Shown one piece after another: positions 1,085 through 63,895 of a stretch of 64,000 nucleotides of DNA. Positions within the stretch are counted from its first letter, which is position 1; every line of letters starts with the position of its first letter. This DNA is from Patescibacteria group bacterium. Its GTDB lineage: Bacteria > Patescibacteriota > WWE3 > UBA101185 > UBA10185. The stretch spans positions 57,601 through 121,600 of the forward strand of contig JAHJEV010000001.1 in NCBI GenBank assembly GCA_018825365.1, given 5' to 3'. The position numbers and the translations under genes were made by a program. Below the pieces are notes generated by a model that saw only the letters and a program-made list of their open reading frames with translations, was not told the DNA's origin and did no database searches.

Positions 1085-3490
1085 TTAGAATGGAAATTTA
1101 TCCAAAGGATTTTTTACCGGTTCTTTGGGTTCGTCTAAAGCCAGTCTTTTGTTTATCGCAGCTTCAACTTCTTCAACCGGGACCCCGTATTTATTTCTTG
1201 ATAATTCTCTTATTTGTTGTGCGGTTTTTGGATCTTTCTTAGGTGAAGATATTTCGTCCCAATCAATAAAAAGTGAGAATGGTGGAGTAGGTTGTCCTTT
1301 GACCAAAAGTCTCATATAAGCATTTCCTACCGGTAGGTTACTTAAATCTTGTTTGGTAAAATTTGGCTGGAATTGCGGTTCCAGATACTCTGCGTCGTCA
1401 ACCCCTACCCTAAAGGCACATATAGTTCCTACATTTCCAAATATTGCGTCTTTTATTTCATCGGTTAGTTGCTGAATGAATTGGTGAACCACCGTAAGAT
1501 TAAGTTTGTATTTTCTTGCCTCGGAAAGAATGGTGGCAAAATCCGGAGTCGCAAAGTTTTGGAACTCATCAACAAAAAGGAAGAAATTGGGAAAGTCCCC
1601 CTTTATCTTATGTCTTTTTAATGCGGCCGCAAGTATTCTTGGAACAAACAAAAGACCGATGAAATTTGAGTTTTCCTCTCCTATTTTCCCTTTCGCCAAA
1701 TCAATAAGAAGGATTTTCTTTTGTGACATCACGTCGTCAAAATTAAACGAGGATTTTGATTGGCCGATGATGTTTCTCATTGTTTTATCTGTCAAAAACC
1801 TATCGAACTTGGAAACGAAATACCCCATTGTTTCACCTTTTCTGCTTTGAGATGTGTGTGCAACCTCATCAATCCAGTACCTTTTCACAAGTGGGTCTGT
1901 AAGTTTGTCCAAAAACTTTTTATGGTAACTTTCGTCTATTAAAAGACGTAAAACATCGACCATCGTTGACTCCGGATCAACCATCGCGGTAAGCATCACG
2001 TTTCTGATTGTTCTTTCAAGCAGTGGACCCATAATACCCTGTTTGTTTGGATCATAAAGCTTGTACAAAAGTGCGATGAACGCATTTATAAGAATGTTTC
2101 TTTCTTCTTCAGTGTGTGCTTCCAGGAGGTTTAAGCCACAAGGCCTTTCTGAGTCTGCGGCATCAAATAAAATAACATCATCCATTCTTTCAGGAGGAAT
2201 TTTTTGTAATATATCATCTATATCAGTTCCGTGAGGATCGATAATGGCAACTCCCTCTCCGCGTTTAATATCCTGAAGAGCTATCCATTTCATAAGCTCC
2301 GACTTACCCGTACCTGTTTGTCCAATAATATAGCAATGTCTTTTTCTATCCTCATCTCTCATAAATACCTTCTTTTCCACACCTCTAAATACACTTTTTC
2401 CAAGATAAACTCCTTCGTTTTCATTAGGCAGTTCTATTGGAGCTGAAGATCTTCTTGCTCCAAGCCATACAATATTGGGGGTCCCGACATTTTTATTAGG
2501 GAAGTGAAAGACTGTTGCCATCTCCACGTTATTTAAAATGGAAACGTTTGAGTAGAGCTGGATACCCATGATCGGGAGCTCTATCTTTTTGATACTAATT
2601 TTTCTGTATATAAAATCTCTAATTAGTTTTTTAGAGGAGATGAAAGTTTTTTTGGCAAATCTGTTGTATGTCGCATCTGTAAATTGTTCAAAAGCTGTTA
2701 CAAGATTTTGAATTAGGGATTCTGCTTCCTGTTTAGTATCGGATATGGAAACGATTCTTATTTTCGTATTAAAGCCGGGGTTCCCAATTTTGCTCTCGAC
2801 CCCCTCTAAAAATTTCTCATCAACATTTGTGCGTTTTTCTGGATTTGCAACGCGTGCTTTTACGCTTGATATAAATCTTCTTCCGGCCATTCTCCAGCTA
2901 TCATCTGCCGGCTGGATAACATACTGAACGGCGATGACTTCTCCGGGTCCCATTTTGCTCATCGCTGAAGTAATAGAGCTTAAAGAATCATTCTTTAAAT
3001 TTTCATAAACTTTTATTGGGTAGTAAGCCGGTGCTTTTAGTTTTAGCTCTGTTATTTTTGTGTATTTTCCTCTGTCCCATATCTCAACCGGTTTTACGAT
3101 ATCTATTTCTGCCGAAGGGTAGGCGGCATTTATTTGTTTTTCAACCAGGGATGATATTTCATCCGGTGTCACTACATAAAACGAGATGCCTTCCGCTTTT
3201 GAGATAATTTCAAAAGCTATTCTGTTTTGACCGGTGAATAAAGACTTCCAAAAGCTTTTTTTAAAACCCATCAGATTAGAAAACATGTGTTCGGCTGCTT
3301 TTGTTTCTATCTCATTATCCGGGGGAAGTTTTATTTGAAGGAAGGTAAGTTTGTACTGGTCTGTTTTCTCGTTAACTCTCCTTTTCCAAGCGGCGAAACC
3401 AAAAACAATTGCTGTCGAGAGGAATACGAGTAGTATCAGGTAAACGGAGATCCAAAATGTATTGTATATAAGGCTATTTGGTTCCACCAT
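1085..3490 (-). CDS. Membrane-anchored P-loop ATPase of the HerA/VirB4/TraC (AAA_10/DUF87-like) class
   Basis: 801 aa. N-terminal TM helix. Walker A 'GQTGTGKSEL' followed by 'AIIDPHGTD' (the 'iiDPkGEy' signature of AAA_10/HerA-VirB4). Walker B-like 'FLFVDEFQNF'. Confidence 0.55.
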   Translation of the reverse strand: MVEPNSLIYNTFWISVYLILLVFLSTAIVFGFAAWKRRVNEKTDQYKLTFLQIKLPPDNEIETKAAEHMFSNLMGFKKSFWKSLFTGQNRIAFEIISKAEGISFYVVTPDEISSLVEKQINAAYPSAEIDIVKPVEIWDRGKYTKITELKLKAPAYYPIKVYENLKNDSLSSITSAMSKMGPGEVIAVQYVIQPADDSWRMAGRRFISSVKARVANPEKRTNVDEKFLEGVESKIGNPGFNTKIRIVSISDTKQEAESLIQNLVTAFEQFTDATYNRFAKKTFISSKKLIRDFIYRKISIKKIELPIMGIQLYSNVSILNNVEMATVFHFPNKNVGTPNIVWLGARRSSAPIELPNENEGVYLGKSVFRGVEKKVFMRDEDRKRHCYIIGQTGTGKSELMKWIALQDIKRGEGVAIIDPHGTDIDDILQKIPPERMDDVILFDAADSERPCGLNLLEAHTEEERNILINAFIALLYKLYDPNKQGIMGPLLERTIRNVMLTAMVDPESTMVDVLRLLIDESYHKKFLDKLTDPLVKRYWIDEVAHTSQSRKGETMGYFVSKFDRFLTDKTMRNIIGQSKSSFNFDDVMSQKKILLIDLAKGKIGEENSNFIGLLFVPRILAAALKRHKIKGDFPNFFLFVDEFQNFATPDFATILSEARKYKLNLTVVHQFIQQLTDEIKDAIFGNVGTICAFRVGVDDAEYLEPQFQPNFTKQDLSNLPVGNAYMRLLVKGQPTPPFSLFIDWDEISSPKKDPKTAQQIRELSRNKYGVPVEEVEAAINKRLALDEPKEPVKNPLDKFPF

Positions 3491-15509: not shown

Positions 15510-16655
15510 TTACTGCTTCTCACCAAAAATATATTTTTGCATATACGCATGAATTTGTGAAAAATCTCCGGTTCTTGGAATTAAAACCCACTGATCCTCG
15601 TAAAGCTGGGTATCTACAGGAGAGTATAAAAGTCCCCCTTCATCTGCCTCACTTGTGTTATCCAAAACAACCGAAACGGTTTTATCAAATTTAATCTGCT
15701 GGGAGAGAAGGTAAAAGCTTTCCAGTGTTTTTAGATCCATGTTTGTATCAACGTTTTTGGCATAAGCATCATACAGACCTTTTAACTTTGTAGGGTTGAA
15801 AAGAGTTTGTATAGATATTGCCTTGTCCTTTATAGATACAATTACTTTCTGTTGTCTTTTTGCTCTTGCAAAGTCTGTACCTTCGTCATTGTCTCCGTGT
15901 CTTGATCTTGCGAAGTCCAAAGCTGTTATGGGGTCCATTGTTTGAACCCCGGTTGTGAAAGAGATGGTTTTCCATCTGCACGGGAAGTCGTTCTCGGTAA
16001 GTTTGTCTGCTTCTTCCGGTTTCATTCCACAAAGACTGTTTTCCATACCTTCAACCGGATAGTACCTATCTGTGAATGCGGTATCGACATTAACTTCTAT
16101 TCCCCCCAAGACCTCTATTGCCTGTTCAAAAAGATCAAACGTTACTAATACGTGATAATGGATCGGAATTCCGGTGATTTCTTGTACTACTCTTTTTATC
16201 TCATCGGCGCCGCCAAATTCATATACGGCATTTAGCTTATTTGATTTATATAAAGTTCCCCCACATATGTCTGTGGTGCAGTTGTAGTTTGTTATCCACA
16301 AATCTCTGGGAAGGGAAACCATTACTATGTTGTTATCCACCGCTCCTACTGAAACTACCATCATGGTATCGGTAAGAACATGACCGCTTTCTGCTCCTGC
16401 ACCCCTTTTATCCGAGCCAAGAACTAAAATGTTTGTCCTCCCATCTGTTTCTAAAATATTGGCAGCGGAAACGTTCGCAATTATTGAGATGGGATTAAAA
16501 GCCTGCTTGATTTTCCCCCTGAATACGTAAAGTACTGTTCCGATAAGAAGAAGTATTACCACCAAAAGGATGAATTTAGAAAACCCCTTATTTCGTGGTT
16601 CGTTTACAACCATCTTTTTTTGTTTTGAAATGTCCGTATACTTCATATTCTTCAC
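15510..16655 (-). CDS. LytR-CpsA-Psr (LCP) family cell-envelope phosphotransferase
   Basis: N-terminal TM helix. 'NILVLGSDKRGAGAESGHVLTDTMMVVSV...SLPRDLW' matches the LCP core motifs. Confidence 0.7.
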   Translation of the reverse strand: MKNMKYTDISKQKKMVVNEPRNKGFSKFILLVVILLLIGTVLYVFRGKIKQAFNPISIIANVSAANILETDGRTNILVLGSDKRGAGAESGHVLTDTMMVVSVGAVDNNIVMVSLPRDLWITNYNCTTDICGGTLYKSNKLNAVYEFGGADEIKRVVQEITGIPIHYHVLVTFDLFEQAIEVLGGIEVNVDTAFTDRYYPVEGMENSLCGMKPEEADKLTENDFPCRWKTISFTTGVQTMDPITALDFARSRHGDNDEGTDFARAKRQQKVIVSIKDKAISIQTLFNPTKLKGLYDAYAKNVDTNMDLKTLESFYLLSQQIKFDKTVSVVLDNTSEADEGGLLYSPVDTQLYEDQWVLIPRTGDFSQIHAYMQKYIFGEKQ

Positions 16656-17323
16656 TCAAACTTTTTGGAGTAAGCACTTATTATATCTGCAAAAGTTTTA
16701 GGATCAAGGCTTGCGTTTCCAACCAAAACTCCGTCCAGCTTTTCTATTTTTGAAAGTTCTCCGATATTGGTTTCATTTACGGAGCCTCCATATATTAAAG
16801 TGGAGGTGCTGGGGAGTTTCTTTCTTATTTCTCCCACTGTTTTTTCGATTTCTAGTGTGCTTTTAACGTTATAAACCCCATTTTTTGATATGTTTTTAGA
16901 ATCTTCCCAGACAAATATGCAGTTTTCTGAATATAAATCTTTAAGACCTCTCGGATTTACGAAACAGATAATAGGTGTAATGCCTTCTTTTAGACAAGCA
17001 TTTCTCTTTTTGATCACCGTTTTTTGATCTTCTTTTCTTTCGCTATGGCCTATTATCGCGTATTTACAGAATGCTTTTAGTTGAAAGGCACCTGTTTCTC
17101 CTGTGTGCGCGCCTTTTTCCTCAAAGGATACATCCTGAGAAGATAGTTTAAGTGAGGTTTTTTGCGAGAGTTCAAATATTGCCGGTATGTGTACAAAACT
17201 TGGTGCTAGAATCACTTCGACTGCCGGTGTTACACAGGCTTGGAGTTCTGAAAACCCGGCAACCCACTTCGTCAGGTCTTCAAAGTTCATATTCATTTTC
17301 CAGTTAGCGATTATGTATTTCAT
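16652..17323 (-). CDS. tpiA: Triosephosphate isomerase
   Basis: 'IIANWKMN', 'IGHSERK' and 'YGGSV' motifs. Confidence 0.9.
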   Translation of the reverse strand: MKYIIANWKMNMNFEDLTKWVAGFSELQACVTPAVEVILAPSFVHIPAIFELSQKTSLKLSSQDVSFEEKGAHTGETGAFQLKAFCKYAIIGHSERKEDQKTVIKKRNACLKEGITPIICFVNPRGLKDLYSENCIFVWEDSKNISKNGVYNVKSTLEIEKTVGEIRKKLPSTSTLIYGGSVNETNIGELSKIEKLDGVLVGNASLDPKTFADIISAYSKKFE

Positions 17324-17324: not shown

Positions 17325-18173
17325 TTATAAAGAAAGCTTTCTTATTGTGTCCTCAATTAATTTCGGTAAGTTTTCCACGTCCTCGTGGGTGTGATTATAA
17401 CCCAAAACATTAAGACATGAAAAAACAATTCCGATATCAGTATATATTTTATCTGCAAATTGGCAGGCAACAAGACTGTCTATTAAAACATTTCCTCCTA
17501 TCTCGCCAACTCTTGATTTTCCGCATCCCATCGGACAGTTTGAACAGGAAGGGTAGACGCCCCTTTCAACTCTAAGATCAGAAGTTCTTGCAAGTATTGT
17601 TTTATATAATCTTTGATATTCTTCAAAATTTTCCGGGGAGTATACTTCGGTTCCTGTTATTACAAGGCCTTTTAGATTTTTTTGGACGAACGCCTTCTCT
17701 AGATGGTTTTCAGGAGTAGTAAAATAATTGTCCAGGAGAGTCTTATTGTTTTCGTGTCCAATTACACTTCTTTTTCCCGGAAGCCCCAAAGATCGAAGGT
17801 CCATAGCCTCGCCGTGAAAGGTCGTTTTAGTGTTTAGTATTTCTACTACCGTTTTCTCTTCCGCCTTTTTGCATATCACGATTGCGTCGATTCCTGCGAA
17901 TCTCATTCTAAGAGAAAGACTTCCGCCGATATAAAGGTCCTCAATTGAGCCTTCATCATTCAAAACCACAGCCGTTTTTGATGCAAAAGGAAAAAATCCG
18001 TTTAGAGGCCCAATTGCAAAGACAACAGGTTCCTTGTCGGCATAAATTTCAAGAAGCTTTAAACCTAACCCAACACCCCCAAGGTATTTATTTAGGTCAA
18101 CAAAGCTGTTAACATCGGACTCTTTTTTAGCTAGATCTATTACCAAGACTTTTTTAGCCGATAAATCAATCAT
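17325..18173 (-). CDS. Truncated aldehyde:ferredoxin oxidoreductase family protein (AFOR N-terminal domain plus CxxCxxxC only)
   Basis: 'GGVGLGLKLL...PVVFAIGPLNGFFPFASKTAVVLNDEGS...GGSLSLRMRFAGIDAIVICKKAEEKTVVEI' aligns to the AOR N-terminal domain. 'CSNCPMGC' matches the AOR [4Fe-4S] ligand motif. At 282 aa there is no room for the pterin-binding domains. Confidence 0.55.
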   Translation of the reverse strand: MIDLSAKKVLVIDLAKKESDVNSFVDLNKYLGGVGLGLKLLEIYADKEPVVFAIGPLNGFFPFASKTAVVLNDEGSIEDLYIGGSLSLRMRFAGIDAIVICKKAEEKTVVEILNTKTTFHGEAMDLRSLGLPGKRSVIGHENNKTLLDNYFTTPENHLEKAFVQKNLKGLVITGTEVYSPENFEEYQRLYKTILARTSDLRVERGVYPSCSNCPMGCGKSRVGEIGGNVLIDSLVACQFADKIYTDIGIVFSCLNVLGYNHTHEDVENLPKLIEDTIRKLSL

Positions 18174-18436
18174 TTAGCTTGGTTCTCCACCTCATCAACT
18201 ATTTCCAGCACACTTGTGGGGCAGATCTCGCAAATTTTATCAATATTAAGCATGTTTAGGCGCGGATCTATTTCCACACTATTAACCAAAGTTTGTGGAT
18301 CTTTACCTTTTTTCCTGAATATTCTAATTAAAGATTCTTCCAAGCCTACCTTTTTCAGTTGTCTCTGAGCTTCAAGAGAGCACAACTCGCACCCGTTGCA
18401 TTTATCGACTTGTGTTGCTTTAAGTGTTTTTGACAT
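18170..18436 (-). CDS. [4Fe-4S] ferredoxin
   Basis: 88 aa. 'CNGCELC' plus 'CEICP' gives the CxxCxxC...CP pattern. Overlaps the AOR-like gene by 4 nt. Confidence 0.6.
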   Translation of the reverse strand: MSKTLKATQVDKCNGCELCSLEAQRQLKKVGLEESLIRIFRKKGKDPQTLVNSVEIDPRLNMLNIDKICEICPTSVLEIVDEVENQAK

Positions 18437-19407
18437 TAGTTTAAGGCTGTTATGCCGGGAAGAGTGCCTTCTGCCAAATACTGAAGCATGGCGCTTCCGC
18501 CGGTTGACACGAAACTAAATTTATTCAATAAACCAAGTTTATCTAGGGCGCTTATTGTATCTCCGCCTCCGACTAGCGAGTAAATACCTTTTTCTTCTGT
18601 TTCTTTTGCTATTTCAAGAGCTATTTCTCTTGTTCCCACAATAAATTCTTCTTTTTCGTACATTCCCAACGGTCCGGCCCAAAGAACTGTTTTTGCGGTT
18701 CGAATATATTTTTTAAAGTCATCTATAGTTTCGGAGTCGATATCCGTTGATTTTAGGTCTATATTACGGGAAATAATTAGGTTTCGAGGAATTTCTTTAC
18801 TCCAACTGGCAGAAAGAAGCGAACTGAGAAGCACAAAGTCCGCCATCGCAAGTAATTTGTCTATTACAGGAATTTTACTTTCAGGTTTTGCTCCTCCTAT
18901 TATCACAATAAGTGGTTTTTCAGGTGTTTTTACTATTTTGTTCAATACTTCAATCTCTTTCTGGAGCCTAAAACCGGCATAAGAAGGTAGTATTTTTGGT
19001 AATTCTACAATTGAGGTGTGTTCTCTGTGGTCGTTGCCAAAGCTTTCGTTTACATACATTTCTGCTTTTGAGGCTAGTTCTTTTGCAAATTCTGGATCTT
19101 TTTCCTCCTCTCTTGGGTCAAATCGAAGATTCTCAAGGATCTCAAATCTGTTCTCACCAAGTTTTTCATTAAAATAGGGAAGAAAGTGTCTGGTGCTTAG
19201 TTTTTCAATGACCTGACCTTTGGGTCTCCCAACGTGCCCCGCTATTAAAGGAATTCCGCCTTTTTCTATAATGAATTTAAGGGTTTCTAACAAATTATCC
19301 AGTCTGAAGGTCTCTGCGATGGTCCCGTTTTCAATTGGAACGTCTATGTCACATCGAACGAAAACTCTTGTGCCTGATTTAATGGGTGCTTCTGATAAAG
19401 ATTTCAT
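18436..19407 (-). CDS. pgk: Phosphoglycerate kinase (compact)
   Basis: 'RVFVRCDIDVP', 'GHVGRP', 'GGAKPESKIPVI', 'GGGDT' and 'STGGSAMLQYLEG' motifs. 323 aa. Confidence 0.9.
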   Translation of the reverse strand: MKSLSEAPIKSGTRVFVRCDIDVPIENGTIAETFRLDNLLETLKFIIEKGGIPLIAGHVGRPKGQVIEKLSTRHFLPYFNEKLGENRFEILENLRFDPREEEKDPEFAKELASKAEMYVNESFGNDHREHTSIVELPKILPSYAGFRLQKEIEVLNKIVKTPEKPLIVIIGGAKPESKIPVIDKLLAMADFVLLSSLLSASWSKEIPRNLIISRNIDLKSTDIDSETIDDFKKYIRTAKTVLWAGPLGMYEKEEFIVGTREIALEIAKETEEKGIYSLVGGGDTISALDKLGLLNKFSFVSTGGSAMLQYLAEGTLPGITALN

Positions 19408-19492
19408 GTGAATATTTTAGCATTAATTGAAGTTTGACATGGGTGTTTCACTGAGGTATATTCTGAAAAAACCTATAGAAAAGGAGCATCAA

Positions 19493-19795
19493 ATGGATAA
19501 CTTAAATATTCGTGTCTATAAGGCCGTTTTTCCCGACGGCAGTTATTCTTTCCAATGCAAAACGAAGGACGAGTTTGGAGTAACAAGTATGTCGAACATG
19601 GAGCTGTTGGTTGGAGAGGTAGTGGATAACATACACTTCCTTTCCGCTTCTTGTCATGACGGCAAACTCGGTAATATATCCATCGACTTTCGCCCCTATC
19701 ATGATATAGAATGCTCGGGCGCTAAGCCAAGGCTTTGTATGCCTCTTACCGAGGGAAAGATCAAAACTTTTTGGGGTATTTTTATAACAAAGTAA
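19493..19795 (+). CDS. Hypothetical Cys-containing small protein (orphan)
   Basis: AAGGAG RBS 7 nt before ATG at 19493. About 100 aa. GC above the local background. Followed by a 9-bp stem hairpin (AAGCTAGAA...TTCTAGCTT). Confidence 0.3.
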   Translation: MDNLNIRVYKAVFPDGSYSFQCKTKDEFGVTSMSNMELLVGEVVDNIHFLSASCHDGKLGNISIDFRPYHDIECSGAKPRLCMPLTEGKIKTFWGIFITK

Positions 19796-19884
19796 CCGTT
19801 CTCCGAAGCAAAGCTAGAACACGCTGCAACAACAGGTGAAATTTCTAGCTTTCTTTTGTTTTCGGTTGCTGCTTTAGCCTGGGG

Positions 19885-20961
19885 TTATTCTGCCATCATG
19901 ACAGCCATTTCCACAAGTCTGCAGCTGTAACCCCATTCATTGTCGTACCAAGCAAACACCTTAATAAGGTTCCCATCGATGACCTTAGTCATCGTGAGAT
20001 CAGCAATTGCCGAGTATGTATTTCCGATAATGTCCGAAGAGACAATTGGCTCGTATGTGACTTGGAGTACATCTTTGTAAATCGGATTTTTTGAGGCATC
20101 TTCTAAGGCCTTGTTTACCTCATCGACAGTTACATTTTTTTCTACCAAGGCAGTAATGTCGGAAATAGAACCGGTCATTACAGGAACTCTCAAAGAAACG
20201 CCATCAAACTTCTCTTTTAGATTGGGCAATGCTTCAACCGTCGCATCCGCGGCCCCTGTTGTTGTAGGGATGATGTTGTATCCGCTTGCTCTTGCTCTTC
20301 TTAAGTCAACTTTTTCTCCGAAGGGTGGGCTATCTGCAACATTTTGATTGTTCGTTATTGCGTGGATAGTACTCATTCCTGCTTTTAATATCTTAAATTC
20401 CTTGTCAAGAATAGCTAGGATTGGAGAAATGCAGTTTGTTGTGCAGGATGCGTTTGAGATTGCGTTTTGGCCTAAATACTGAGAATCGTTGACGCCTTTC
20501 ATAAAGGTTTGAATAGTTCCGCCTTTTGTTGGAGCTGAAACCACAACCTTTTTGGCACCTGCTTTTATATGTTCAAGGGCGGAATCGTCTTTTGTGAACC
20601 TTCCGGTACATTCCAACACAACATCTATGTTAAGTTCCCTCCATGGAAGTTTTGTCGGATCTTTTTCTGAAATAACTAGAGTTTTTTTACCTTCCACGAC
20701 AATGTAATTTTCACTACCTTTAATATCAAAGAAATCTTTTTCACCTCTGTTATCTTCAAGTTTTATCTTTTTTCTGTCTTCTTCAAGCCAAATTTCTTTT
20801 CCATATACGCCGTACACCGTGTCGTACTTGAGTAGGTGAGCCAAAACTCGGGGATTTGTCAGATCGTTGATAGCAATAACATCTATTCCTTTACCGTGGG
20901 CGATCTTAAAGGAGGATCTTCCTATTCTTCCAAAACCATTGATTGCAATTCGGGCAGTCAT
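19885..20961 (-). CDS. gap: Glyceraldehyde-3-phosphate dehydrogenase
   Basis: 'INGFGRIGR' and active-site 'SCTTNC'. 358 aa. Confidence 0.95.
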   Translation of the reverse strand: MTARIAINGFGRIGRSSFKIAHGKGIDVIAINDLTNPRVLAHLLKYDTVYGVYGKEIWLEEDRKKIKLEDNRGEKDFFDIKGSENYIVVEGKKTLVISEKDPTKLPWRELNIDVVLECTGRFTKDDSALEHIKAGAKKVVVSAPTKGGTIQTFMKGVNDSQYLGQNAISNASCTTNCISPILAILDKEFKILKAGMSTIHAITNNQNVADSPPFGEKVDLRRARASGYNIIPTTTGAADATVEALPNLKEKFDGVSLRVPVMTGSISDITALVEKNVTVDEVNKALEDASKNPIYKDVLQVTYEPIVSSDIIGNTYSAIADLTMTKVIDGNLIKVFAWYDNEWGYSCRLVEMAVMMAE

Positions 20962-20983: not shown

Positions 20984-21247
20984 TTATAAATGCGAGTCGA
21001 TCCAGTTTTTTAACATTTCTTTTGGCATTGCAGCACTTTTTCTATCTAACTCTTTATCATTTTTTAGAATCACATACGTAGGAATATTCATAATTCCAAA
21101 TTTCCCTGCCATTTCGCTTTCCGCTTCTACATCAATCTTTTGGAATTCGACTTTTCCTTCATATCCTTTTTCCAATTCCTTAACTATCGGGGCCATTGCC
21201 TTGCATGGTCCGCACCAATCTGCATAAAAATCTAAAAATTTAATCAT
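20984..21247 (-). CDS. trxA: Thioredoxin
   Basis: WCGPCK active site. 87 aa. Confidence 0.85.
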   Translation of the reverse strand: MIKFLDFYADWCGPCKAMAPIVKELEKGYEGKVEFQKIDVEAESEMAGKFGIMNIPTYVILKNDKELDRKSAAMPKEMLKNWIDSHL

Positions 21248-25002: not shown

Positions 25003-27300
25003 TTATTCCGGGTTGATTGAAAAATTCTCGGCATCCGCGGCCTTGATTTGAAGCTGAAGTGCTTTGATCTCACCCTTGGTTGTCTTTAGCGTAATCACTC
25101 CGGCAACCTTAATCTTGTCCCGCCTCTCACCGTTGAGAAAGTCAAAAACATCCGAATCCAATTCGTCAAATGTCCAAACGTTAGTGTCGATACTCGGCAG
25201 GTCATAATCTGTGTCAAAAAAGTAAACCACGGGCAGATAGGGCTCCTCAGGATCCTGATCAGTGATTTCGATCAACACGCCCTGAACACCATCGCCGTGA
25301 ACATTTTTGATGTTGCGTGCGAGAACAACATCTTCCTCGACCTCGGTGTATTCGATGGCGTATTGCTCCGTATCTTTGGTATCAATTTCGACCTTTACCA
25401 ACTTTGCAGACCCGCCGTAGTCAACAATATCGACGAACCTTAGCGACTTGGTGGACCCCGGATCCTTCATCGCTTCGCACAAGTCTGTGTCTATTTCTGT
25501 GATATCCACTTCCTCGAACGACTCAGAAGATCTGCTTAAATCAACGGTTTCCCCATCGAAAAGGTACAATTGATCGGAGTACTCTTTATTCACAGGCTGT
25601 TTGGTAATCACAAGGACAAAGCCTTGGATATCATCACCATATTTTTCCTTCAGGACACGCTCGATCATAACACTATCATCAACTTCTTCTCCCTCGATAT
25701 CGAATATGTTGCACGCGTCGTCCGCGGTGATTTCAACCACCAGCAACCTGACTCCATCGCCCAGTGTTTCTACACCCACAATCTTGGCACGATTTTGATA
25801 GTCGGTTCCCATGAGGAATTCCTCAAGTGATGAGAATGTTCCATCCAGGCTTTGATCATCATGAGTGGAGTCGATATTTTCAAGACCACTTATGTCTTCT
25901 CCCTCGAATGGAAACACAAGATCGTTGTAGTCGATGTCTTTGGGCTGGTCTACGATCCTCACGTACACGCCCTGTACCTCATTTCCGTATTGCGCACGGA
26001 TTTTCCGCTCAATGATCTCGCTGTTTTCCAGCTCCTCGCCTTCAATACCGAAACGATCCGCGTCGTCAGCTCGGATATGGACTTCAAGCAGTTTTGAGAC
26101 ACCAAGGTATGTTATGATTTCTGCAAAAACCACCTCGGGCCGTTCCTGCTCACCACGGAAAATTTCTTCCAAGTCAGAATCCGACATGTTGTCGAGCTCG
26201 CGAATGTGAAATTCAGTACCTGAAGCTTCTAGGGCATCCAATGCCTGCACTGTCTCCTCATCGAAGGGATAGACTTCGTCTGGGTAGCAGTAGTTGTCAG
26301 GGACGTCAATGATTTTGACAACAAGTCCCCGAACTGACGAGTTCCTTGCTAAGATTTCTCGGACACGTTTTACAACGACCGCACTGGTCTCGACTTTCTC
26401 GTACGGAAGGTCATATTCCTCAGCCGCTTCTACATCTATTTCGATCTTCAGTAGCTGCACAACGTTTGCAAAGTTGACCAGTCCGACGATTTTCGACAGC
26501 GCCGGTGTATCTCCAGTGAGAAGAGCGTTTGTCAGTTCGTGAGGCATATCATCAAAGCTGCGGAGATTTCCAGGATCTTCAACTTTCCGAAGCCTGTCAT
26601 CGGTCTCCGTATTGAAGGTATAGATCTGCGGAAGATAGACCACAGTATCAGGAAAACCTGTTACAACAAGGACTACGCCCTGAGTCTGCGAACCATATTT
26701 CCTTCGCAGTTTTCGGGAAATGCGGGTAGCCTCGTCCTGGTATTCCGGCAAGATGTCAAAAAGTTCGGCATCTTTGGCCTTAATACGAATCTCCAGAAGC
26801 AAAAAATTACCAACTCGCGTAGTTCCAAAGTCCTGTGCGAGGGTTTCGCCCTGATTGATAACGGTTTCGTCCCGTCTTTCTAGCATAGCTGCTAGTTCCG
26901 GATTAAGATCGGCCATTCTTTCTACATCATACTCGGTGAATCCTCCTTGTAAGCCCGTAGACCTTGGTGTACCTCCAAAAAGGTAGATTCTCGAGCGGTA
27001 TGACTCGTCTTCAGGCACATCGGTAATCGTAACCAAAATGCCTTTTACAAAGTTGCCGTACTTAGATGTGATGGCAGATACCACTGTCGAGATACTCGCG
27101 AGATTGCTGCTAACCACCTTTTTAATGGCGAAAGCAAACAGTCTTGCTAACACAAACGCTGGAAACGCAAACAGCAAGAACAGCACAAGAAGGGTTTCAG
27201 CAGTTACCTTCACGATCTCCCTTCCCACTAAGAACGCCAGAAATGCGTACACTGTCAGTACCAGCGTTCCGACGACAAGTAAAGTACTAAGTTTCTTCAT
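25003..27300 (-). CDS. Membrane-anchored acidic tandem-repeat protein (6 x ~115-aa repeats), unknown function
   Basis: 765 aa. Two N-terminal TM helices. A repeated module appears at least five full times plus partial copies. Each module has a core 'LL.VEI.A.DAE.F.IEGEE...IERKIR..YG..VQGV.V.I.D.P...Y.D.VY.FD.E'. Coding GC is about 50% against a roughly 35% background. AAGGAG RBS. Confidence 0.6.
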   Translation of the reverse strand: MKKLSTLLVVGTLVLTVYAFLAFLVGREIVKVTAETLLVLFLLFAFPAFVLARLFAFAIKKVVSSNLASISTVVSAITSKYGNFVKGILVTITDVPEDESYRSRIYLFGGTPRSTGLQGGFTEYDVERMADLNPELAAMLERRDETVINQGETLAQDFGTTRVGNFLLLEIRIKAKDAELFDILPEYQDEATRISRKLRRKYGSQTQGVVLVVTGFPDTVVYLPQIYTFNTETDDRLRKVEDPGNLRSFDDMPHELTNALLTGDTPALSKIVGLVNFANVVQLLKIEIDVEAAEEYDLPYEKVETSAVVVKRVREILARNSSVRGLVVKIIDVPDNYCYPDEVYPFDEETVQALDALEASGTEFHIRELDNMSDSDLEEIFRGEQERPEVVFAEIITYLGVSKLLEVHIRADDADRFGIEGEELENSEIIERKIRAQYGNEVQGVYVRIVDQPKDIDYNDLVFPFEGEDISGLENIDSTHDDQSLDGTFSSLEEFLMGTDYQNRAKIVGVETLGDGVRLLVVEITADDACNIFDIEGEEVDDSVMIERVLKEKYGDDIQGFVLVITKQPVNKEYSDQLYLFDGETVDLSRSSESFEEVDITEIDTDLCEAMKDPGSTKSLRFVDIVDYGGSAKLVKVEIDTKDTEQYAIEYTEVEEDVVLARNIKNVHGDGVQGVLIEITDQDPEEPYLPVVYFFDTDYDLPSIDTNVWTFDELDSDVFDFLNGERRDKIKVAGVITLKTTKGEIKALQLQIKAADAENFSINPE

Positions 27301-28118: not shown

Positions 28119-29633
28119 ATGGATCTAACTGGATTACTTCCTACGATCGCATTGGTGGTAGGAATCATTGTCGTACTCCTGGTAGCGTTCTTTGCAATTT
28201 CCAGGGCTACGCGTCTCTATCACCGTGTACCTCCCAGCCAAGTGCTGGTTGTCTTCGGACGTGGTAAAACACAGTTCGATGCAGACGGAAAACAGGAAAA
28301 GACCGGCGTACGTTTCATCACCGGTGGTGGCGGCGTAGTGCTTCCAATTCTGGAAGAATGCACCACTATCGACCTGACCGTAATGACGATTACACAGAAC
28401 AAGGACCGAGTGTATTCGACCGACGGTGTTGCTGTCAACCTCGATTGGGTTGCACAGGTGAAGATAGCTGAAGATCAGCATTCACTCGCAACAGCCGCGC
28501 GTACTTTCCTGGGAAAAAGTACGAACCAAATTGTCCAGGTGATTACCGAAACCCTTTCGACGAACTTCCGGGCCATCGTGGGCCAGATGACTGTTGAAGG
28601 CGTGCATCGTGATCGCGATGCCTTCGTCCAGGCTGTCCAGAAATTGGCAGCGGATGAAATGACGGCCATGGGTGTGCGGATTATTTCCATGGGAGTCAAA
28701 GAGATCACCGATGACCTCGGTTACTTTGAAGCAATGGCTGCTCCGAAGATCGCTGAAGTGATGCGCGATGCCAAAATCGCTAAATCTTTGGCCGACCAAG
28801 CTGCCCGCGAACAAGAGGCAAAATCTATGTTGACCGCTCGTGAAGCTGAACTTCACACTGATGAAGTTATCGCTCAGAAAGAACGCGATGTTGAGCTTCA
28901 GAAGGTCGATAAGAATAAGCAGGTCGGTCTCGCCCAAGCAGACGCGGACAAAGAAGTGCAAACCAAAAAGGCTCTGGCCGTTGCACAACAACAGGAAGCC
29001 GAAGTACTGGTTCCTGCTCGCGCTGCCAAGGAAGCTGTCGAGATCAATGCGAATGCGGCAAGGTCGAAGACAGAAACAGAAGCTGACGCAAATGCCTATT
29101 CGAAGAAGACAGCAGCTCAGGCTGAAGCCCAAGCTGTAACACTCACCGGACAGGCTACAGCCGATGCCAATAAGGCAAAACTGTTTGCTGAAGCTGAAGG
29201 CACGAGGGCAAATCTTCTCGCTGAAGCCGAGGGCAAGCAGAAGATCGCTGAGGCCACCGCCGCCGAAGGTGAAGTTAACCTTCGTCAGTTTGTTGCGGCT
29301 GAGCTTATCAAAGCTCAGCAGGCAACTGGCATTGCTTTTGCTGCTGCCATGGGCCAGATTGGTGAAAACGTCAGGATCGTTCAGATTGGCGATATTCCAG
29401 CCGAAAAGAACGGACTTCTCGGTATACTGCAACAGGCCCCGCTCATTGCTGTTCAGCTCAACGAGCAAGTCAAGGCCCTCACCGGCGGTATGTCGATCGA
29501 ACAGGTTCTTACACAGGTTGCTGGTACTCTCAAACTGGCTGGGAAAACCCAAGCAGATGTTAAGACACCGAGTAGCAACGAAGAATCTGCCGCTGACATT
29601 TCTGGAAAGAAAGGTAAGAAGCTGACAAAGTAA
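28119..29633 (+). CDS. floT: Flotillin-like SPFH/band-7 protein
   Basis: N-terminal TM helix, an SPFH domain, then long Ala/Glu-rich coiled-coil with 'AEAEG' repeats typical of flotillins (FloT/YqiK). 504 aa. Confidence 0.8.
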   Translation: MDLTGLLPTIALVVGIIVVLLVAFFAISRATRLYHRVPPSQVLVVFGRGKTQFDADGKQEKTGVRFITGGGGVVLPILEECTTIDLTVMTITQNKDRVYSTDGVAVNLDWVAQVKIAEDQHSLATAARTFLGKSTNQIVQVITETLSTNFRAIVGQMTVEGVHRDRDAFVQAVQKLAADEMTAMGVRIISMGVKEITDDLGYFEAMAAPKIAEVMRDAKIAKSLADQAAREQEAKSMLTAREAELHTDEVIAQKERDVELQKVDKNKQVGLAQADADKEVQTKKALAVAQQQEAEVLVPARAAKEAVEINANAARSKTETEADANAYSKKTAAQAEAQAVTLTGQATADANKAKLFAEAEGTRANLLAEAEGKQKIAEATAAEGEVNLRQFVAAELIKAQQATGIAFAAAMGQIGENVRIVQIGDIPAEKNGLLGILQQAPLIAVQLNEQVKALTGGMSIEQVLTQVAGTLKLAGKTQADVKTPSSNEESAADISGKKGKKLTK

Positions 29634-42733: not shown

Positions 42734-43729
42734 TTAGGCAATTGAGCTTACGCTATCTTTCAGCAGCTCTTTATTTACCAGATATTTTGGTGGGTTCTTA
42801 TTAATTAATACATCAATTACGTTCTCTGCTGCCATTCTAGCCATCTGAATTCTTGCTTCCCAGGTTGCGCTGGCAATGTGCGGAGTTAGAAGCACGTTGT
42901 TTAGTTTCAAAAGGTCTGGATGGATTTTTGGTTCTTCTTCAAACACATCAAGAGCCGCTCCGGCAATGTAGTTTTCTTTTAGAGCTAAAGCCAGAGCGTT
43001 TTCATCAATCACCGGACCCCTTGCCGTATTTATGAGTATAGCGCCGGGTTTCATAAGTTCAAATTGAGCACTATCTATCATGTGCTTTGTTTCTTCGGAC
43101 AGGTTAACGTGCAGGGAAATCACATCGCTATTTTGTAGCAAGTAATCCAAACTTACCTTTTCTGCATCTAACAGATTTTCGGCTTCTGGATGTGGGGCGA
43201 TATCGTAATAAAGAATTTTCATGTTAAGACCGTGTTTTGCCATTCGCGAAAAGAACTGTCCAATCCTTCCAAAACCGATAATTCCCAGTGTCTTTCCCAT
43301 GAATTTTGGTCCTATAAATGTCATGGGGTCCCAGTATTTGTATTTTCCATCTCTGCAGAATTTATCTGCCTCCGCAAGTCTTCTTCCAAGTCCCAGCATC
43401 ATGGAAAGTGCGTGTTCAGCAACAGCCTCTGTTAGATCACCCGGGGTGTTGGCAACATAAATATTTTTCTTCGTAGCTTCATCAAGGTCAATGTTGTCAT
43501 AACCCACAGAGTAGGTTGCAACAACCTTTAAGTTTTTAGCTACTTCAAATACGGACTTGTTAATCTGGTCGGGTATTACCGGAATGATCGCGTCAGCGTC
43601 TTTAATAGCTTTTTTTAACTCTGCGGGCGACAGAGGAGCACCTTTTCTGTAATCAAGCTCCAAGTTTTTGTGCTCTGTTAAAAGGTTTATTCCTGCTTGT
43701 GGTATTTCTCTTGTAATTAATACTTTCAT
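42734..43729 (-). CDS. D-isomer-specific 2-hydroxyacid dehydrogenase (glycerate/hydroxypyruvate reductase-like)
   Basis: NAD-binding 'GIIGFGRIGQ'. Catalytic R/E/H spacing typical of the family. 331 aa. Confidence 0.8.
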   Translation of the reverse strand: MKVLITREIPQAGINLLTEHKNLELDYRKGAPLSPAELKKAIKDADAIIPVIPDQINKSVFEVAKNLKVVATYSVGYDNIDLDEATKKNIYVANTPGDLTEAVAEHALSMMLGLGRRLAEADKFCRDGKYKYWDPMTFIGPKFMGKTLGIIGFGRIGQFFSRMAKHGLNMKILYYDIAPHPEAENLLDAEKVSLDYLLQNSDVISLHVNLSEETKHMIDSAQFELMKPGAILINTARGPVIDENALALALKENYIAGAALDVFEEEPKIHPDLLKLNNVLLTPHIASATWEARIQMARMAAENVIDVLINKNPPKYLVNKELLKDSVSSIA

Positions 43730-43744
43730 GGGCAGTTTCCAGCT

Positions 43745-44695
43745 TTATTCCACTAACTTATTTACCAAATTTTCCATCTTATCTTTAGTATAAAGACCAG
43801 TATCTGTTCCTGCTACTTCTATTTCACCTCTGGCGTTAACAACCCCCCAGGCTAGCGCTTCTCTTAGAGGTCTTTTGTGAAATATTGCCGACACAAAACC
43901 CGATGAGAAAGCATCCCCAGCTCCGGTTTTATCAACAACCGGCCGTCCATCATCATATGCAGTAAGACTTACGAGATTTTCCCCATCAAACGCACTAACA
44001 CCTTTTTCGCCATCGGTTATTACGGTGAGTTTTGGTCCTAACTTTTGCAAGTCAATGTGTATTTGCGGAAGTGGTTTTTCTCCGACAATTTTTGCGGCCT
44101 CTTCCATATTCAAGATTAAAATATCGGTAACTTCCATGAAGCTTTTTAGTGATTCAACACCGGCTTTTAGCTGGTATGTACCGGGATTAAAGACGATTCC
44201 CACACCCGAATTTGATTTAATATATTTAATTAGTTCGTCCTGAAAACTCTGAAACCCATCTCCAATTGAAGTGTAGTAGAGAAGTTTGGGTTTTTCCCAA
44301 TCCCTTACCATGTAATTTCTTTTTCCGTGGTAGGAGAAGATTGTTCGTTCCTTGTTATAAACAATGATTGAGTGAATATCAGTCGTAGTGGCAGCATTTT
44401 TTACGCAGTATCTTGTATCAACTCCAAGTTTCGCCAGTTCTTTAATTATTCTTTCTCCGTTTTCATCATCTCCGATTTCAGTATAAATCGAAGTTTTAAG
44501 ACCCAGATAGTTGCAACCAATACCCACATTTACCGCGTTTCCGGCAATTGATGTTGTAAGGCTTTCAACTGGTATTTTTGTGCCGTGAACAAAACATATT
44601 TCTGAATCACCAGAGGTGGTTACCTTTTCATCAACCGTGTTTACGTGCAGCGTTATATCTATTGACGAATCTCCTATGGTTAGAATGTCACTCAT
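43745..44695 (-). CDS. PfkB-family carbohydrate kinase
   Basis: C-terminal 'DKTGAGDAFSSGF' anion-hole motif. N-terminal GG motif region. 316 aa. Confidence 0.75.
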   Translation of the reverse strand: MSDILTIGDSSIDITLHVNTVDEKVTTSGDSEICFVHGTKIPVESLTTSIAGNAVNVGIGCNYLGLKTSIYTEIGDDENGERIIKELAKLGVDTRYCVKNAATTTDIHSIIVYNKERTIFSYHGKRNYMVRDWEKPKLLYYTSIGDGFQSFQDELIKYIKSNSGVGIVFNPGTYQLKAGVESLKSFMEVTDILILNMEEAAKIVGEKPLPQIHIDLQKLGPKLTVITDGEKGVSAFDGENLVSLTAYDDGRPVVDKTGAGDAFSSGFVSAIFHKRPLREALAWGVVNARGEIEVAGTDTGLYTKDKMENLVNKLVE

Positions 44696-45687
44696 ATTTT
44701 CTCCATATTTTTTAGAAACTTATAAACCTTATCTTCTATATGATGGGCGCTAAGACCGTATTTGTCTTTAAGCTCCTCGTATTTTCCGGACTCTAGAAAA
44801 GTGTCATTGATACCTATTCGAAGCAGCGGGAGGGGATTTTTATCGCTCAAAAGCTCGGCTATTGCTCCTCCCAGCCCCCCGTTTATTTGATGCTCCTCGA
44901 CAGTTACTACGCATTTTGTTTTTTTAACGCTTTGTAAAATTGTTACCTCGTCCAGGGGTTTGATTGTTGGACTTGAGATTACCTCCGCTTCTATTTTGTA
45001 CTTTGCTTTTAGATGTTTTGCAGCAAGTAGCGTCTCATATATTATTGGTCCGCAGGAAATTATTGTGACATCTTTTCCCTCTATGAACACATCCGCTTTT
45101 CCTATTTTAAATAGAGTTTCCCTGGTTGTGATTAATGGTGTTTCTGCTTTTGAAAATCGAAGATACACGGGGCCTTTGTGTTTTGAAATTTCAACAACTG
45201 CTTTTTGTGTTTGATTAGAATCAATTGTGTTTATAACTACCATGTTTGGCAACACTCGCATTGTTGCGATGTCTTCAAGAGGCAGGGCATTTGCTCCGTC
45301 AGGAGCGTTTGATAATCCGGCGTGGGATCCGCATATCTTAACATTCGCATTTTGAAGACAAACAGAGAGTCTTATTTGATCCCAATTTCTTGTAGTGGTG
45401 AATATTGCGTGAGTTGCAACAAACGGGATTTTTCCTGACATCGAAAGACCGGCGGCTATTCCCATCATATTTTGTTCGGCAATACCGCAATGTATGAATC
45501 TTTCGGGATATTTTTCCATGAACCCCCCAAGTCTTACTGAATATGATAAATCGGCGCCAAGAACTATGATGTTTTTGTTTATGGCCGCCGCATCTAAAAC
45601 TCCCTCTCCAAAGCCGTCTCTTGAAGCTTTGAGTTTAACATCACTACTGAATATATCTTGATCAAGTTTGATTTTTTGGTTCAGCAT
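44692..45687 (-). CDS. Transketolase, C-terminal (pyrimidine-binding) subunit
   Basis: Pyr-binding and C-terminal domains ('ERFIHCGIAEQNMMGIAAGL'). Split-type transketolase. Confidence 0.85.
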   Translation of the reverse strand: MLNQKIKLDQDIFSSDVKLKASRDGFGEGVLDAAAINKNIIVLGADLSYSVRLGGFMEKYPERFIHCGIAEQNMMGIAAGLSMSGKIPFVATHAIFTTTRNWDQIRLSVCLQNANVKICGSHAGLSNAPDGANALPLEDIATMRVLPNMVVINTIDSNQTQKAVVEISKHKGPVYLRFSKAETPLITTRETLFKIGKADVFIEGKDVTIISCGPIIYETLLAAKHLKAKYKIEAEVISSPTIKPLDEVTILQSVKKTKCVVTVEEHQINGGLGGAIAELLSDKNPLPLLRIGINDTFLESGKYEELKDKYGLSAHHIEDKVYKFLKNMEKI

Positions 45688-45705
45688 TGGGCAGCGAAGA
45701 AGTAA

Positions 45706-46239
45706 TTAATTGCATTCTAAAGTTTTTGTAACCTTATCAAATCTTATATCCCAATCGGTTTTTGATAGAGTTATAATGTCAACAGCGACGTTCATACCCG
45801 GTTGTGGTGTGCATATATCTCCAGGCACTGTCTCTTCAACTAAAACAAGAAGTCTCTTTTTGGCCTTTTCTTCATAAACTTTTCTTATTTTTACCTTTAC
45901 CCCCTTAAACTCATTAGTGTCTGACGTCGCGGCAATTACCACATCATTGTCGAAATTAATATTTTCTTGTACCTTCAGCAGACCACTTTCATCAATAGAA
46001 TTTAAAAATTCATTTAGTTGTTCGTTTGTGGTAATAACCTCTCTTCGTTTTTCTAACTGTTTTGTTGTGGTAACTGTAGTGGGGAAGTCGGTCAGCCTTG
46101 TGATTGTCGGTTCTTTGTTAAAGTTTGGTAATTTTATTTCGTCTTTAAGAAGAAAAGACCCCACTCCCAATATCAGAAGTATAATGATTGCCAGAGGGAT
46201 CAAACTTACGTTTAATACTGCTTTTTGTTTTTCAATCAT
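45706..46239 (-). CDS. Hypothetical membrane-anchored protein inserted between the transketolase halves
   Basis: 177 aa. N-terminal TM helix. Overlaps the stop of the upstream transketolase N-terminal subunit gene by 8 nt. Confidence 0.35.
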   Translation of the reverse strand: MIEKQKAVLNVSLIPLAIIILLILGVGSFLLKDEIKLPNFNKEPTITRLTDFPTTVTTTKQLEKRREVITTNEQLNEFLNSIDESGLLKVQENINFDNDVVIAATSDTNEFKGVKVKIRKVYEEKAKKRLLVLVEETVPGDICTPQPGMNVAVDIITLSKTDWDIRFDKVTKTLECN

Positions 46240-47098
46240 AAAGTATTTTACCTTTCAAAGTTTTTAGTTCTTCCAGCGCGGTTTTCGCCTCTTTGGAATT
46301 GGGAGCTATTCCGTGCCATCGAAAATCGTTCTCCATAAATTTTACACCCTTACCGGGTATCGTATGTGCAATTATAGCAGTTGGACGCTGTGTTATGGTT
46401 TTTGCCATATTAAATGCACTTATGATCTCAGCTATGTTGTGTCCGTCTATCTCAATTACAAACCAATTGAAACTCTCAAGCTTCTCTTTAAGGTTTTCCA
46501 GCGGCATTACATCTTCGGTATTTCCGTCACTTTGAATATTATTTCTGTCTATGATCCATGTGATATTGTTTAGTTTTTTGTTTGGGGCAAACATTGCGGC
46601 TTCCCACACCTGTCCCTCATCTAGTTCTCCGTCTCCTGTCATACAGTAAATTCTGTAATTTTGTTTATCCATTTTTGCTGCTAATGCCATGCCTATAGCC
46701 TGGGAGAAGCCTTGTCCTAAAGAGCCGCTTGTATTTTCGATTCCGGGAACAGTTCCCAAAACAGGGTGCCCCTGAAGTTTGGAATTAATTTTTCTCAATG
46801 TCCAAAGCTCCTTTTCAGGAAAAAACCCTCTGTGTGAAAGAGTGGCGTACCAGATCGGAACTATGTGTCCATTTGATAGTACAAACCTATCCCTGTTTTT
46901 CATATTTGGATTTTGAGGGTCTATGTTGAGAGTGTGAAAGTATAGGGCAGTAAAAATCTCAGCAGTTCCCAAAGATCCTGCTGTGTGTCCGGTACCGGCT
47001 TCCAGAAGCATATCCACAACAAGTTGTCTTAGTTTGTTAGCAACTTGATAAAGTTTTTCAGTATCCAAAACAGGTTCTTTTTTTTGGGATGTGGGCAT
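46232..47098 (-). CDS. Transketolase, N-terminal (TPP-binding) subunit
   Basis: 'GHTAGSLGTAEIF' and 'GDGELDEGQVWEA' are the TPP-binding motifs. Confidence 0.85.
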   Translation of the reverse strand: MPTSQKKEPVLDTEKLYQVANKLRQLVVDMLLEAGTGHTAGSLGTAEIFTALYFHTLNIDPQNPNMKNRDRFVLSNGHIVPIWYATLSHRGFFPEKELWTLRKINSKLQGHPVLGTVPGIENTSGSLGQGFSQAIGMALAAKMDKQNYRIYCMTGDGELDEGQVWEAAMFAPNKKLNNITWIIDRNNIQSDGNTEDVMPLENLKEKLESFNWFVIEIDGHNIAEIISAFNMAKTITQRPTAIIAHTIPGKGVKFMENDFRWHGIAPNSKEAKTALEELKTLKGKILYD

Positions 47099-62067: not shown

Positions 62068-62221
62068 TTTAATGCTGAAGTACTATTCAGCTCTTGTACA
62101 TTGAAAATTTCCTTTGAGATTTTGAGTTTTCAAGATCATTAAGGCGAAAAGAACGGGTGCTTTGATGAATATCCCCTAACGCATTTGTGGATATTCATTA
62201 AAAGTAATTTAGCTTTTTATT

Positions 62222-63895
<1,674 letters not shown>

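Follow-up and report, generated by a model that had tools for sequence, protein, structure and literature searches.

A domain-reduced relative of aldehyde:ferredoxin oxidoreductase and its ferredoxin-like partner between pgk and tpiA in WWE3 bacteria

Introduction

What is a shortened relative of a tungsten enzyme doing among the genes of lower glycolysis? The question is raised by a locus in 64,000 nucleotides of DNA (the window) from a Patescibacteria group bacterium of the WWE3 lineage (assembly GCA_018825365.1, contig JAHJEV010000001.1, positions 57,601 to 121,600). Between the genes for phosphoglycerate kinase (PGK, pgk) and triosephosphate isomerase (TIM, tpiA) lie a gene for an 88-amino acid (aa) Cys protein and a gene for a 282-aa relative of the aldehyde:ferredoxin oxidoreductases (AORs), here called the mini-AOR. 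The original prediction, made from the letters of the sequence, offered two explanations: a decayed remnant of a gene like that of GAPOR, the AOR-family enzyme of archaeal glycolysis, or a new small Fe-S electron-transfer pair. The mini-AOR gene is intact and under strong constraint; its product is an AOR-family member that has been reduced in its domains and is ancient within WWE3. For the role of the two proteins we infer that the second explanation is the better one. The two genes are as follows.

17325-18173, minus strand: mini-AOR, 282 aa, an intact open reading frame (ORF) without AOR domains 2 and 3 (Pfam AFOR_N)
18170-18436, minus strand: 88-aa Cys protein, the putative single-cluster ferredoxin-like partner (C13-x2-C16-x2-C19 ... 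C72-P73)

The mini-AOR is an intact gene under strong constraint

The presence of an AOR N-terminal domain and a CxxCxxxC motif in the 282-aa protein, as first proposed, is borne out by profile search and alignment. Pfam AFOR_N matches residues 8-120 with E=4.3e-18 (66 bits; cutoff 29.8) and the Cys loop aligns to that of PfAOR. AFOR_C gives a sub-threshold match at the Cys motif only (residues 175-220, 12.4 bits, cutoff 27, E=0.088). A database search returned 393 homologs of the mini-AOR. The best 120 of these are 56-100% identical to it. Their lengths are 279-286 aa, the exceptions being a fragment of 214 aa and a sequence of 309 aa, and where names are given they are WWE3 or Patescibacteria. 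A scan of one genome per species found the mini-AOR at 78 loci with lengths of 270-300 aa, almost all of them in WWE3/Katanobacteria. An exhaustive profile search gave about 44 clusters (50% identity) at E<1e-30, whose complete members are 270-302 aa long, with shorter metagenomic fragments beside them. The sequence of the locus is identical to that of a contig from the Patescibacteria metagenome-assembled genome GCA_043824185.1.

In 12 pairs of close genomes, the dN/dS of the mini-AOR is 0.024-0.076 (Nei-Gojobori). The same pairs give 0.003-0.13 for the 88-aa partner, 0.03-0.09 for gap, 0.04-0.25 for pgk and 0.05-0.135 for tpi. Because its length is kept in 78 species and its dN/dS is 0.02-0.08, the gene is not decaying.

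Domain 1 and the cluster region are retained, the pterin domains are lost

Three parts of the protein can be recognized.

17574-18173, minus strand: residues 1-200, complete AOR domain 1 (the beta-sandwich base), from profile alignment and the AlphaFold2 (AF2) model
17523-17546, minus strand: C210-x2-C213-P-x-G-C217, three putative [4Fe-4S] ligands of AOR type, from sequence alignment
17358-17489, minus strand: residues 229-272, the 'SLVAC237xFA' segment with the putative fourth ligand, the next helix with C253, and the H263-E264 motif

The family profile is colinear with three separated segments of full-length AORs. Residues 1-198 of the mini-AOR align to residues 1 to about 230 of the full-length proteins, which is all of domain 1. 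Residues 204-218 align to about 263-298, the CxxCxxxC loop, and residues 229-272 align to about 445-530, which holds the fourth Cys and the helix after it (E 5e-9 to 3e-4 within a local search of 8 sequences). The Cys motif, C210-S-N-C213-P-M-G-C217, appears as 'sCsnCPmGCGk' in the mini-AOR and as 'pCyaCPiGCGr' (C288/C291/C295) in PfAOR; it also aligns to 'SCYNCPMKCG' of BamB. It is at this motif that tblastn with full-length AORs reaches the mini-AOR. C210, C213, C217 and C237 are invariant in 33 mini-AOR sequences. The position of C237, that of the fourth cluster Cys, is kept in the 14 Cys-bearing full-size AORs from the candidate phyla radiation (CPR) and in 14 of the 14 bacterial AORs compared, and is Asp in both of the cluster-less full-size proteins described below. 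To judge from these alignments, all four Cys that would ligate a [4Fe-4S] cluster of AOR type are present.

The AF2 model has a pLDDT of 80-98 over residues 1-180. The Foldseek comparison that had been suggested as a check returned AOR-family structures only (E 1e-13 to 4e-10), on which the mini-AOR superposes over 254-262 residues. The C-terminal 87 residues alone give a sub-threshold match in the PDB at the correct AOR position (BamB, E=1.3), and against Pfam they give a weak AFOR_C match in 17 of 21 family members.

About 256 residues are absent, in agreement with the early remark that 282 aa leave no room for the pterin domains, and they amount to AOR domains 2 and 3 (AFOR_C). The gaps relative to a 538-aa full-size CPR protein (P0165) are about 41, 167 and 55 residues long. 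In AORs, domains 2 and 3 bind the two pterins and the tungsten atom and carry the catalytic Glu and His. In the alignment with P0165 and 1aor, the regions of Glu313, Asp338 and His448 are deleted; the numbering of these residues and of Arg182 follows the PfAOR literature and was checked against 1aor alignments. The position of Arg182, which is Arg in 14/14 bacterial AORs, is occupied by F151, and that of Arg76 by K66. With domains 2 and 3 gone and Arg182 replaced by Phe, the mini-AOR therefore has no pterin/tungsten pocket and no substrate channel. By its sequence, it would count as a relative of the AORs that lacks the features making an AOR an enzyme. In public records it is called 'AOR N-terminal domain-containing protein' or, misleadingly and in JGI records, 'aldehyde:ferredoxin oxidoreductase'. 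This is a widespread pitfall of annotation, as any reconstruction of WWE3 metabolism that credits an AOR on the strength of the latter name would be wrong. We found no description of the protein in the searchable literature.

Among 33 divergent representatives of the mini-AOR, conservation reaches at least 88% at 24 positions. Gly or Pro occupies nine of them, and the residues that are polar or bind metal are the four ligand Cys, C253, H263, E264 and E267. The remaining seven are L14, F151, Y186, S209, L234, F251 and G216, which lies inside the Cys loop. This pattern suggests that the functional core is the cluster, with domain 1 serving it as a scaffold.

The 88-aa protein resembles a one-cluster ferredoxin

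In 32 partner sequences, which include the partners of full-size AORs, C13, G15, C16, C19, D57 and C72 never vary, and P73 is conserved to at least 90%. The resulting CxxCxxC...CP arrangement is the pattern of a single [4Fe-4S] cluster. Pfam Fer4 scores 12.8 bits on the protein of the window (cutoff 21.1) and matches 30 of the 32 family members, with a best E of 9e-6. The earlier identification of a ferredoxin upstream of the mini-AOR holds as that of a ferredoxin-like protein, on the Cys pattern and on the Fer4 matches of the family; the protein of the window taken alone falls below the Pfam cutoff. Against the PDB, the partner profile finds the Fe-S subunit of WOR5, 9mqx_E of a bifurcating AOR, AorA (8c0z_C, from AorABC) and HycB3. 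The AF2 model has a pLDDT of 85. The gene always adjoins an AOR-family gene, with overlapping stop and start. Its product has one motif, compared with the three or four [4Fe-4S] motifs of the polyferredoxin subunits of AORs, and extra Cys (CPxxC or CxxCxxCxxxC) are kept in only some deep members of the family. The 88-aa protein is probably a one-cluster remnant of a polyferredoxin small subunit.

The pair descends from a full-size AOR and its partner

After the mini-AORs themselves, the best matches of their profile are AORs of 538-604 aa. About 40 clusters of AORs with 536-578 aa make up a CPR clade, and the closest relatives outside the CPR are uncharacterised bacterial AORs of 578-592 aa. 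Five loci of sister CPR lineages (L085, L087, L088, L093 and L094) have a full-size AOR in the same slot, where a small Cys gene (78-100 aa) precedes it and lytR and holA follow. In L088, L093 and L094 pgk lies just upstream of the full-size pair, while in L085 and L087 gap is found further upstream and pgk was not seen. At none of the five does tpiA follow the full-size AOR. Since the full-size pair occupies exactly this slot in sister CPR lineages, the mini-AOR is a reduced ortholog, and the 88-aa gene and the mini-AOR gene are both positional orthologs of the full-size pair. A rough neighbour-joining tree without bootstrap support joins the mini-AORs and the still shorter micro-AORs in a single clade, whose sister group is the full-size CPR clade that bears the Cys. 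Two cluster-less proteins of 550 aa branch outside these and the bacterial AORs are the outgroup. We hold the anatomy of the mini-AOR and its origin as a reduced AOR-family gene with high confidence.

Other relatives have been reduced differently. The two cluster-less full-size proteins, P0168 (L085, 6001-7653) and P0164 (L087, 7001-8653), are 550 aa long and sit in the same slot. All four of their cluster Cys are replaced (by S, N/A, E/D and D), and a Cys-bearing small partner is still encoded upstream. This is a route of reduction opposite to that of the mini form. The micro-AORs P0190 (217 aa; L090, 466-1119) and P0187 (215 aa) keep about 100 residues of domain 1 and the four-Cys region, and the micro-AOR gene in L090 is flanked by an 80-aa small gene and tpiA. 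Of 96 near-invariant positions, 39 differ between the full-size CPR clade and bacterial AORs, the change of Arg182 to Phe among them. Loss of the pterin site may therefore have set in before the deletion, and the full-size CPR AORs, judged by their sequences, may be degenerate themselves.

These results divide the idea of a decayed GAPOR-like remnant in two. The gene did come from a full-size AOR-family gene, as its same-slot orthologs indicate, but it is not decaying, as its dN/dS and length show, and it has no affinity to GAPOR. The GAPOR_Arch model (NCBIfam NF040818) has no match to the mini-AOR at E<=1. Among five full-size CPR and bacterial relatives scanned, three match it at 17.9-33.6 bits in the N-domain only, far from the cutoff of 1300, and two do not match. 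A GAPOR ancestry was rejected on these model scores and on the finding that the nearest relatives are bacterial AORs.

The four genes from pgk to tpiA are closely packed

The mini-AOR cluster has the following neighbours.

20984-21247, minus strand: trx, a conserved upstream neighbour of the cluster (Pfam/NCBIfam)
19885-20961, minus strand: gap, type I GAPDH, a conserved upstream neighbour (Pfam/NCBIfam)
18436-19407, minus strand: pgk, 323 aa (Pfam PGK, E=3e-81)
16652-17323, minus strand: tpiA, 223 aa (Pfam TIM, E=1e-42)
15510-16655, minus strand: lytR (ORF list), followed by holA and a sortase gene

On the minus strand the genes are thus ordered trx, gap, pgk, 88-aa gene, mini-AOR, tpiA, lytR, holA and sortase, and the identities of the type I GAPDH, PGK and TIM are backed by both Pfam and NCBIfam. 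At the junction of pgk and the 88-aa gene (TAATG), stop and start have one base in common. At that of the 88-aa gene and the mini-AOR (ATGA), they overlap by 4 nt. Between the mini-AOR and tpiA (TAA-g-ATG), a single base separates them, which puts the start of tpiA at the second base past the stop, as had been noted. As the junctions overlap or are 1 nt long, the four genes are packed for coupled translation. The order gap-pgk-ferredoxin-AOR-tpiA was called unusual, and it is real, unusual and tight with respect to pgk and tpiA, but gap and pgk are not adjacent, being separated in the window by a 478-nt spacer with an ORF on the opposite strand (19427-19795).

The comparison with related genomes that had been advised found the order conserved. 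By tblastn, trx-gap-(variable)-pgk-small-mini-tpi-lytR-holA-sortase is kept in relatives down to 38% mini-AOR identity. In 9 related loci pgk is absent at this spot, with the small gene, mini-AOR and tpi still together. Every reduced AOR, mini or micro, whose contig extends far enough is followed directly by tpiA.

Some observations on the spacer and the glycolytic enzymes may be added. The spacer (19408-19884) is about 40 to 2500 nt long in relatives, and its ORF of 122 aa has no Pfam match. The top promoter-like match of the region also lies in it (plus strand, 19434-19462, 11/12 positions); the scan for promoters and terminators found no more sites than in shuffled sequence. The PGK of the window is unusually short, with 323 aa against the 379 positions of the Pfam model, which it matches in three stretches, and PGKs of relatives have 321-349 aa. 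The TIM (223 aa) matches the solved 216-aa TIM 7r7m_A with E=1e-71, a structure that reportedly comes from a survey covering TIMs of the whole tree of life. According to Jaffe et al. 2020 (PMC7304191), certain TIMs of Katanobacteria cluster with those of archaea.

The pair as a possible electron-transfer module

We favour the following explanation. The pair would no longer be able to oxidise aldehydes, and selection would keep the electron-transfer end of the old enzyme, with one [4Fe-4S] cluster per protein and a docking like that of heteromeric AORs. The pair, its synthesis tied to that of PGK and TIM by translational coupling, would serve as a low-potential electron relay or a redox sensor in a fermenter with PFOR and a group 3b hydrogenase. 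The four Cys are retained even in the micro forms of 215-217 aa. WWE3 bacteria have PFOR, an ADP-forming acetyl-CoA synthetase and a 3b hydrogenase, and 'a ferredoxin oxidoreductase-like protein' is listed among their electron carriers (Kantor et al. 2013, PMC3812714). A fermentation through PFOR and ADP-forming acetyl-CoA synthetase, with a 3b hydrogenase besides, makes a low-potential carrier or adaptor plausible. In one lineage (L091 and L092, 804-4622), a four-gene operon of a group 3b-type [NiFe] hydrogenase stands divergently beside pgk-small-mini-AOR-tpi; the mini-AOR there has 276 aa and is followed by tpiA.

Several points weigh against this explanation. Cluster binding is read from Cys patterns alone, and a four-Cys cluster with nothing beyond it would lack an obvious partner to give or take electrons. 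The pLDDT of the AF2 model drops below 50 at residues 200-249, the Cys region, although this is expected of an empty cluster site. With the model of the 88-aa protein, Foldseek gives weak matches to Fe-S subunits and the Pf ferredoxin (E about 0.2, TM about 0.5). P0164 and P0168 lack the Cys and are yet retained, so that there, at least, the role is not cluster-based. Simple electron transfer leaves the fifth Cys, C253, and the His-Glu motif without explanation. The order of lytR, holA and the sortase gene is conserved too, and position alone is therefore no proof of a link to glycolysis. On balance, the role as electron relay or redox sensor is a tentative suggestion with somewhat less than an even chance of being correct. 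The explanation as a whole, in which anatomy, origin and electron-transfer role are blended, we consider slightly favoured.

Alternative explanations

The best of the alternatives, although an unlikely one, is that the mini-AOR is a non-redox scaffold or regulator. Domain 1 would be a binding platform for TIM, PGK or another protein, and the cluster would be structural or a redox switch. The genes themselves invite this thought: all reduced AORs, the 217-aa micro form included, stand directly before tpiA and none of the five full-size AORs does, the mini-AOR stop and the tpiA start are one base apart, and the 9 loci without pgk keep the small gene, the mini-AOR and tpi together. The cluster-less 550-aa lineage moreover keeps the protein without its Cys ligands. 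However, the reduced forms are one clade and the adjacency to tpiA may stem from a single ancestral event. The Cys ligands are the most conserved polar or metal-binding residues, and the conserved positions of domain 1 are mostly Gly or Pro, with L14, F151 and Y186 besides. Any binding of the mini-AOR to TIM or PGK is putative.

A new Fe-S enzyme is less likely still. Here the cluster, C253 and H263/E264/E267 would form an active site on domain 1, possibly that of a reductase acting on disulfides or small molecules, which the ferredoxin partner would feed and which may be tied to the upstream trx. C253 is conserved in 94% of the representatives of the mini clade and is Ala in full-size and micro forms, and H263, E264 and E267 are each at least 91% conserved in the mini clade. 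The very low dN/dS of the mini-AOR, the trx at the head of the cluster and the retention of K66 at the Arg76 position agree with such a role. The absence of C253 from the micro forms and the conservation of H263 in the full-size CPR clade as well speak against it. With the full set of four canonical ligand Cys in place, nothing implies an open Fe site, and no known fold or motif match backs any particular chemistry. A reading along the lines of ferredoxin:thioredoxin reductase, suggested by the upstream trx and by a cluster with an extra Cys, was not adopted, as there are only five conserved Cys, and four in the micro forms.

It is very improbable that the enzyme is split, with its pterin domains encoded elsewhere and the complex still a tungsten or molybdenum oxidoreductase of aldehydes or glyceraldehyde 3-phosphate. 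Heteromeric AORs do exist, going by PDB names, and 64 kb is only part of the genome. Nevertheless, the original prediction had called for a search for the missing domains, and for it seven full-length AORs supplied their domains 2 and 3 as tblastn queries; in the 64-kb window and about 80 related loci these matched only the brief stretches kept in the mini gene itself. The deletion is internal and the C-terminal piece maps to about 445-530, unlike the outcome of a simple gene split, and the residue equivalent to the pterin-phosphate residue Arg182 is Phe. No pterin-cofactor gene occurs among the roughly 40 of 41 window ORFs of at least 200 aa that were identified or scanned, and GAPDH and PGK are present, so that a bypass is unneeded. 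The notion that tpiA replaced the lost domains (mini-AOR and TIM make 505 aa together, close to the 538-550 aa of full-size AORs) was rejected as a coincidence, as the deletion is internal and the C-terminal segment has its own place at about 445-530.

That a full-length AOR or GAPOR has recently become a pseudogene here, or is cut short by a frameshift or an assembly artefact, has a negligible probability: full-size AORs were indeed found in the same slot, as the original prediction had foreseen for such a case, but in distant CPR lineages, whereas the mini form is fixed, with its length of 270-300 aa recurring in 78 species-level genomes from many independent assemblies, a dN/dS of 0.02-0.08, no AOR-like sequence in other frames nearby by tblastn, and no match to the GAPOR model.

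Significance

The mini-AOR is a natural example of reductive protein evolution in a lineage of small genomes. A metalloenzyme of about 600 aa was cut to its base domain and electron-entry site, and its partner, probably once a multi-cluster one, was cut to one cluster. Selection on both proteins matches in strength that on core glycolytic enzymes. Full-size, cluster-less full-size, 280-aa mini and 215-aa micro forms provide a series for comparison. If the electron-transfer explanation is true, a dedicated carrier or redox sensor tied to PGK and TIM would be a missing piece of the handling of reduced ferredoxin in these fermenters. A bolder version, which we regard as a long shot, is that the reduced AOR, the one-cluster ferredoxin and tpiA would form a functional unit for a ferredoxin-linked control or reaction of lower glycolysis in WWE3-type CPR bacteria, and that AOR domain 1 with its cluster would be a hitherto unrecognised stand-alone Fe-S class with its own chemistry through C253 and the His-Glu motif.

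Other features of the window

The 16S rRNA gene is complete at 62216-63634, and a group I intron match at 63588-63842 (55 bits) overlaps its 3' end. Between 24000 and 30000 the G+C content is 0.43-0.48, compared with about 0.38 elsewhere. A 765-aa ORF at 25003-27300 has no Pfam match, and at 28119-29633 lies the gene of a 504-aa Band_7/SPFH protein, accompanied by a long antisense ORF. An ATP-dependent DNA ligase, the archaeal/eukaryotic type, lies at 50709-52520, and a 440-aa fusion of BpsA_C (branched-chain polyamine synthase) and AdoMet-decarboxylase lies at 60677-61999. At 1085-3490, an 801-aa protein with weak matches to TraG/VirD4 and HerA-type ATPases may belong to a conjugation or DNA-transfer system. 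A pentose-phosphate cluster (42734-48679) encodes transketolase as two genes (46232-47098 and 44692-45687), together with a PfkB kinase, a D-2-hydroxyacid dehydrogenase and a ribulose-phosphate 3-epimerase. It corresponds to the WWE3 cluster of Kantor et al. 2013 (PMC3812714).

Comparison with known systems

The tungsten AOR family (PfAOR 1aor, FOR 1b25, WOR5 6x1o, BamB 4z3w and the bacterial AORs 9g7j, 9mqx and 8c0z) has in common with the mini-AOR the fold of domain 1, the C-x2-C-P-x-G-C-G motif, a fourth Cys in 'S-L-x-x-C-x-F' and a partner of ferredoxin type. The mini-AOR differs from that family in the loss of domains 2 and 3 (about 256 residues), the Phe in place of Arg182 and a fifth Cys specific to its clade. 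Closer to it are the full-size AOR-like proteins of the CPR (P0165, P0279, P0304 and others), which are encoded in the same slot, after pgk and a small Cys gene and before lytR and holA, and which also have Phe at the Arg182 position and His at 263. Unlike the mini-AOR, they keep AFOR_C with residues of Glu313 and Asp338 type, and no tpiA follows them.

Archaeal GAPOR shares with the mini-AOR its kinship to the AOR family and a setting in lower glycolysis. It is unlike this locus in that its model does not match the mini-AOR and in that GAPDH and PGK are present here. The 88-aa family compares best with the Fe-S small subunits of AORs (WOR5-S 6x6u_B, AorA 8c0z_C and 9mqx_E) and the polyferredoxins of HycB type, to which its profile matches with E 7e-5 to 0.03. 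It shares with those subunits the N-terminal 'K-C-x-G-C-x-L-C' motif, the distal C-P and a gene directly upstream of the AOR. With WOR5-S and AorA, the pairing and gene order are alike, whereas the likeness in sequence is weak (E 0.002-0.03). The 88-aa family has one cluster pattern in 76-100 aa, where those subunits have three or four in 150-190 aa.

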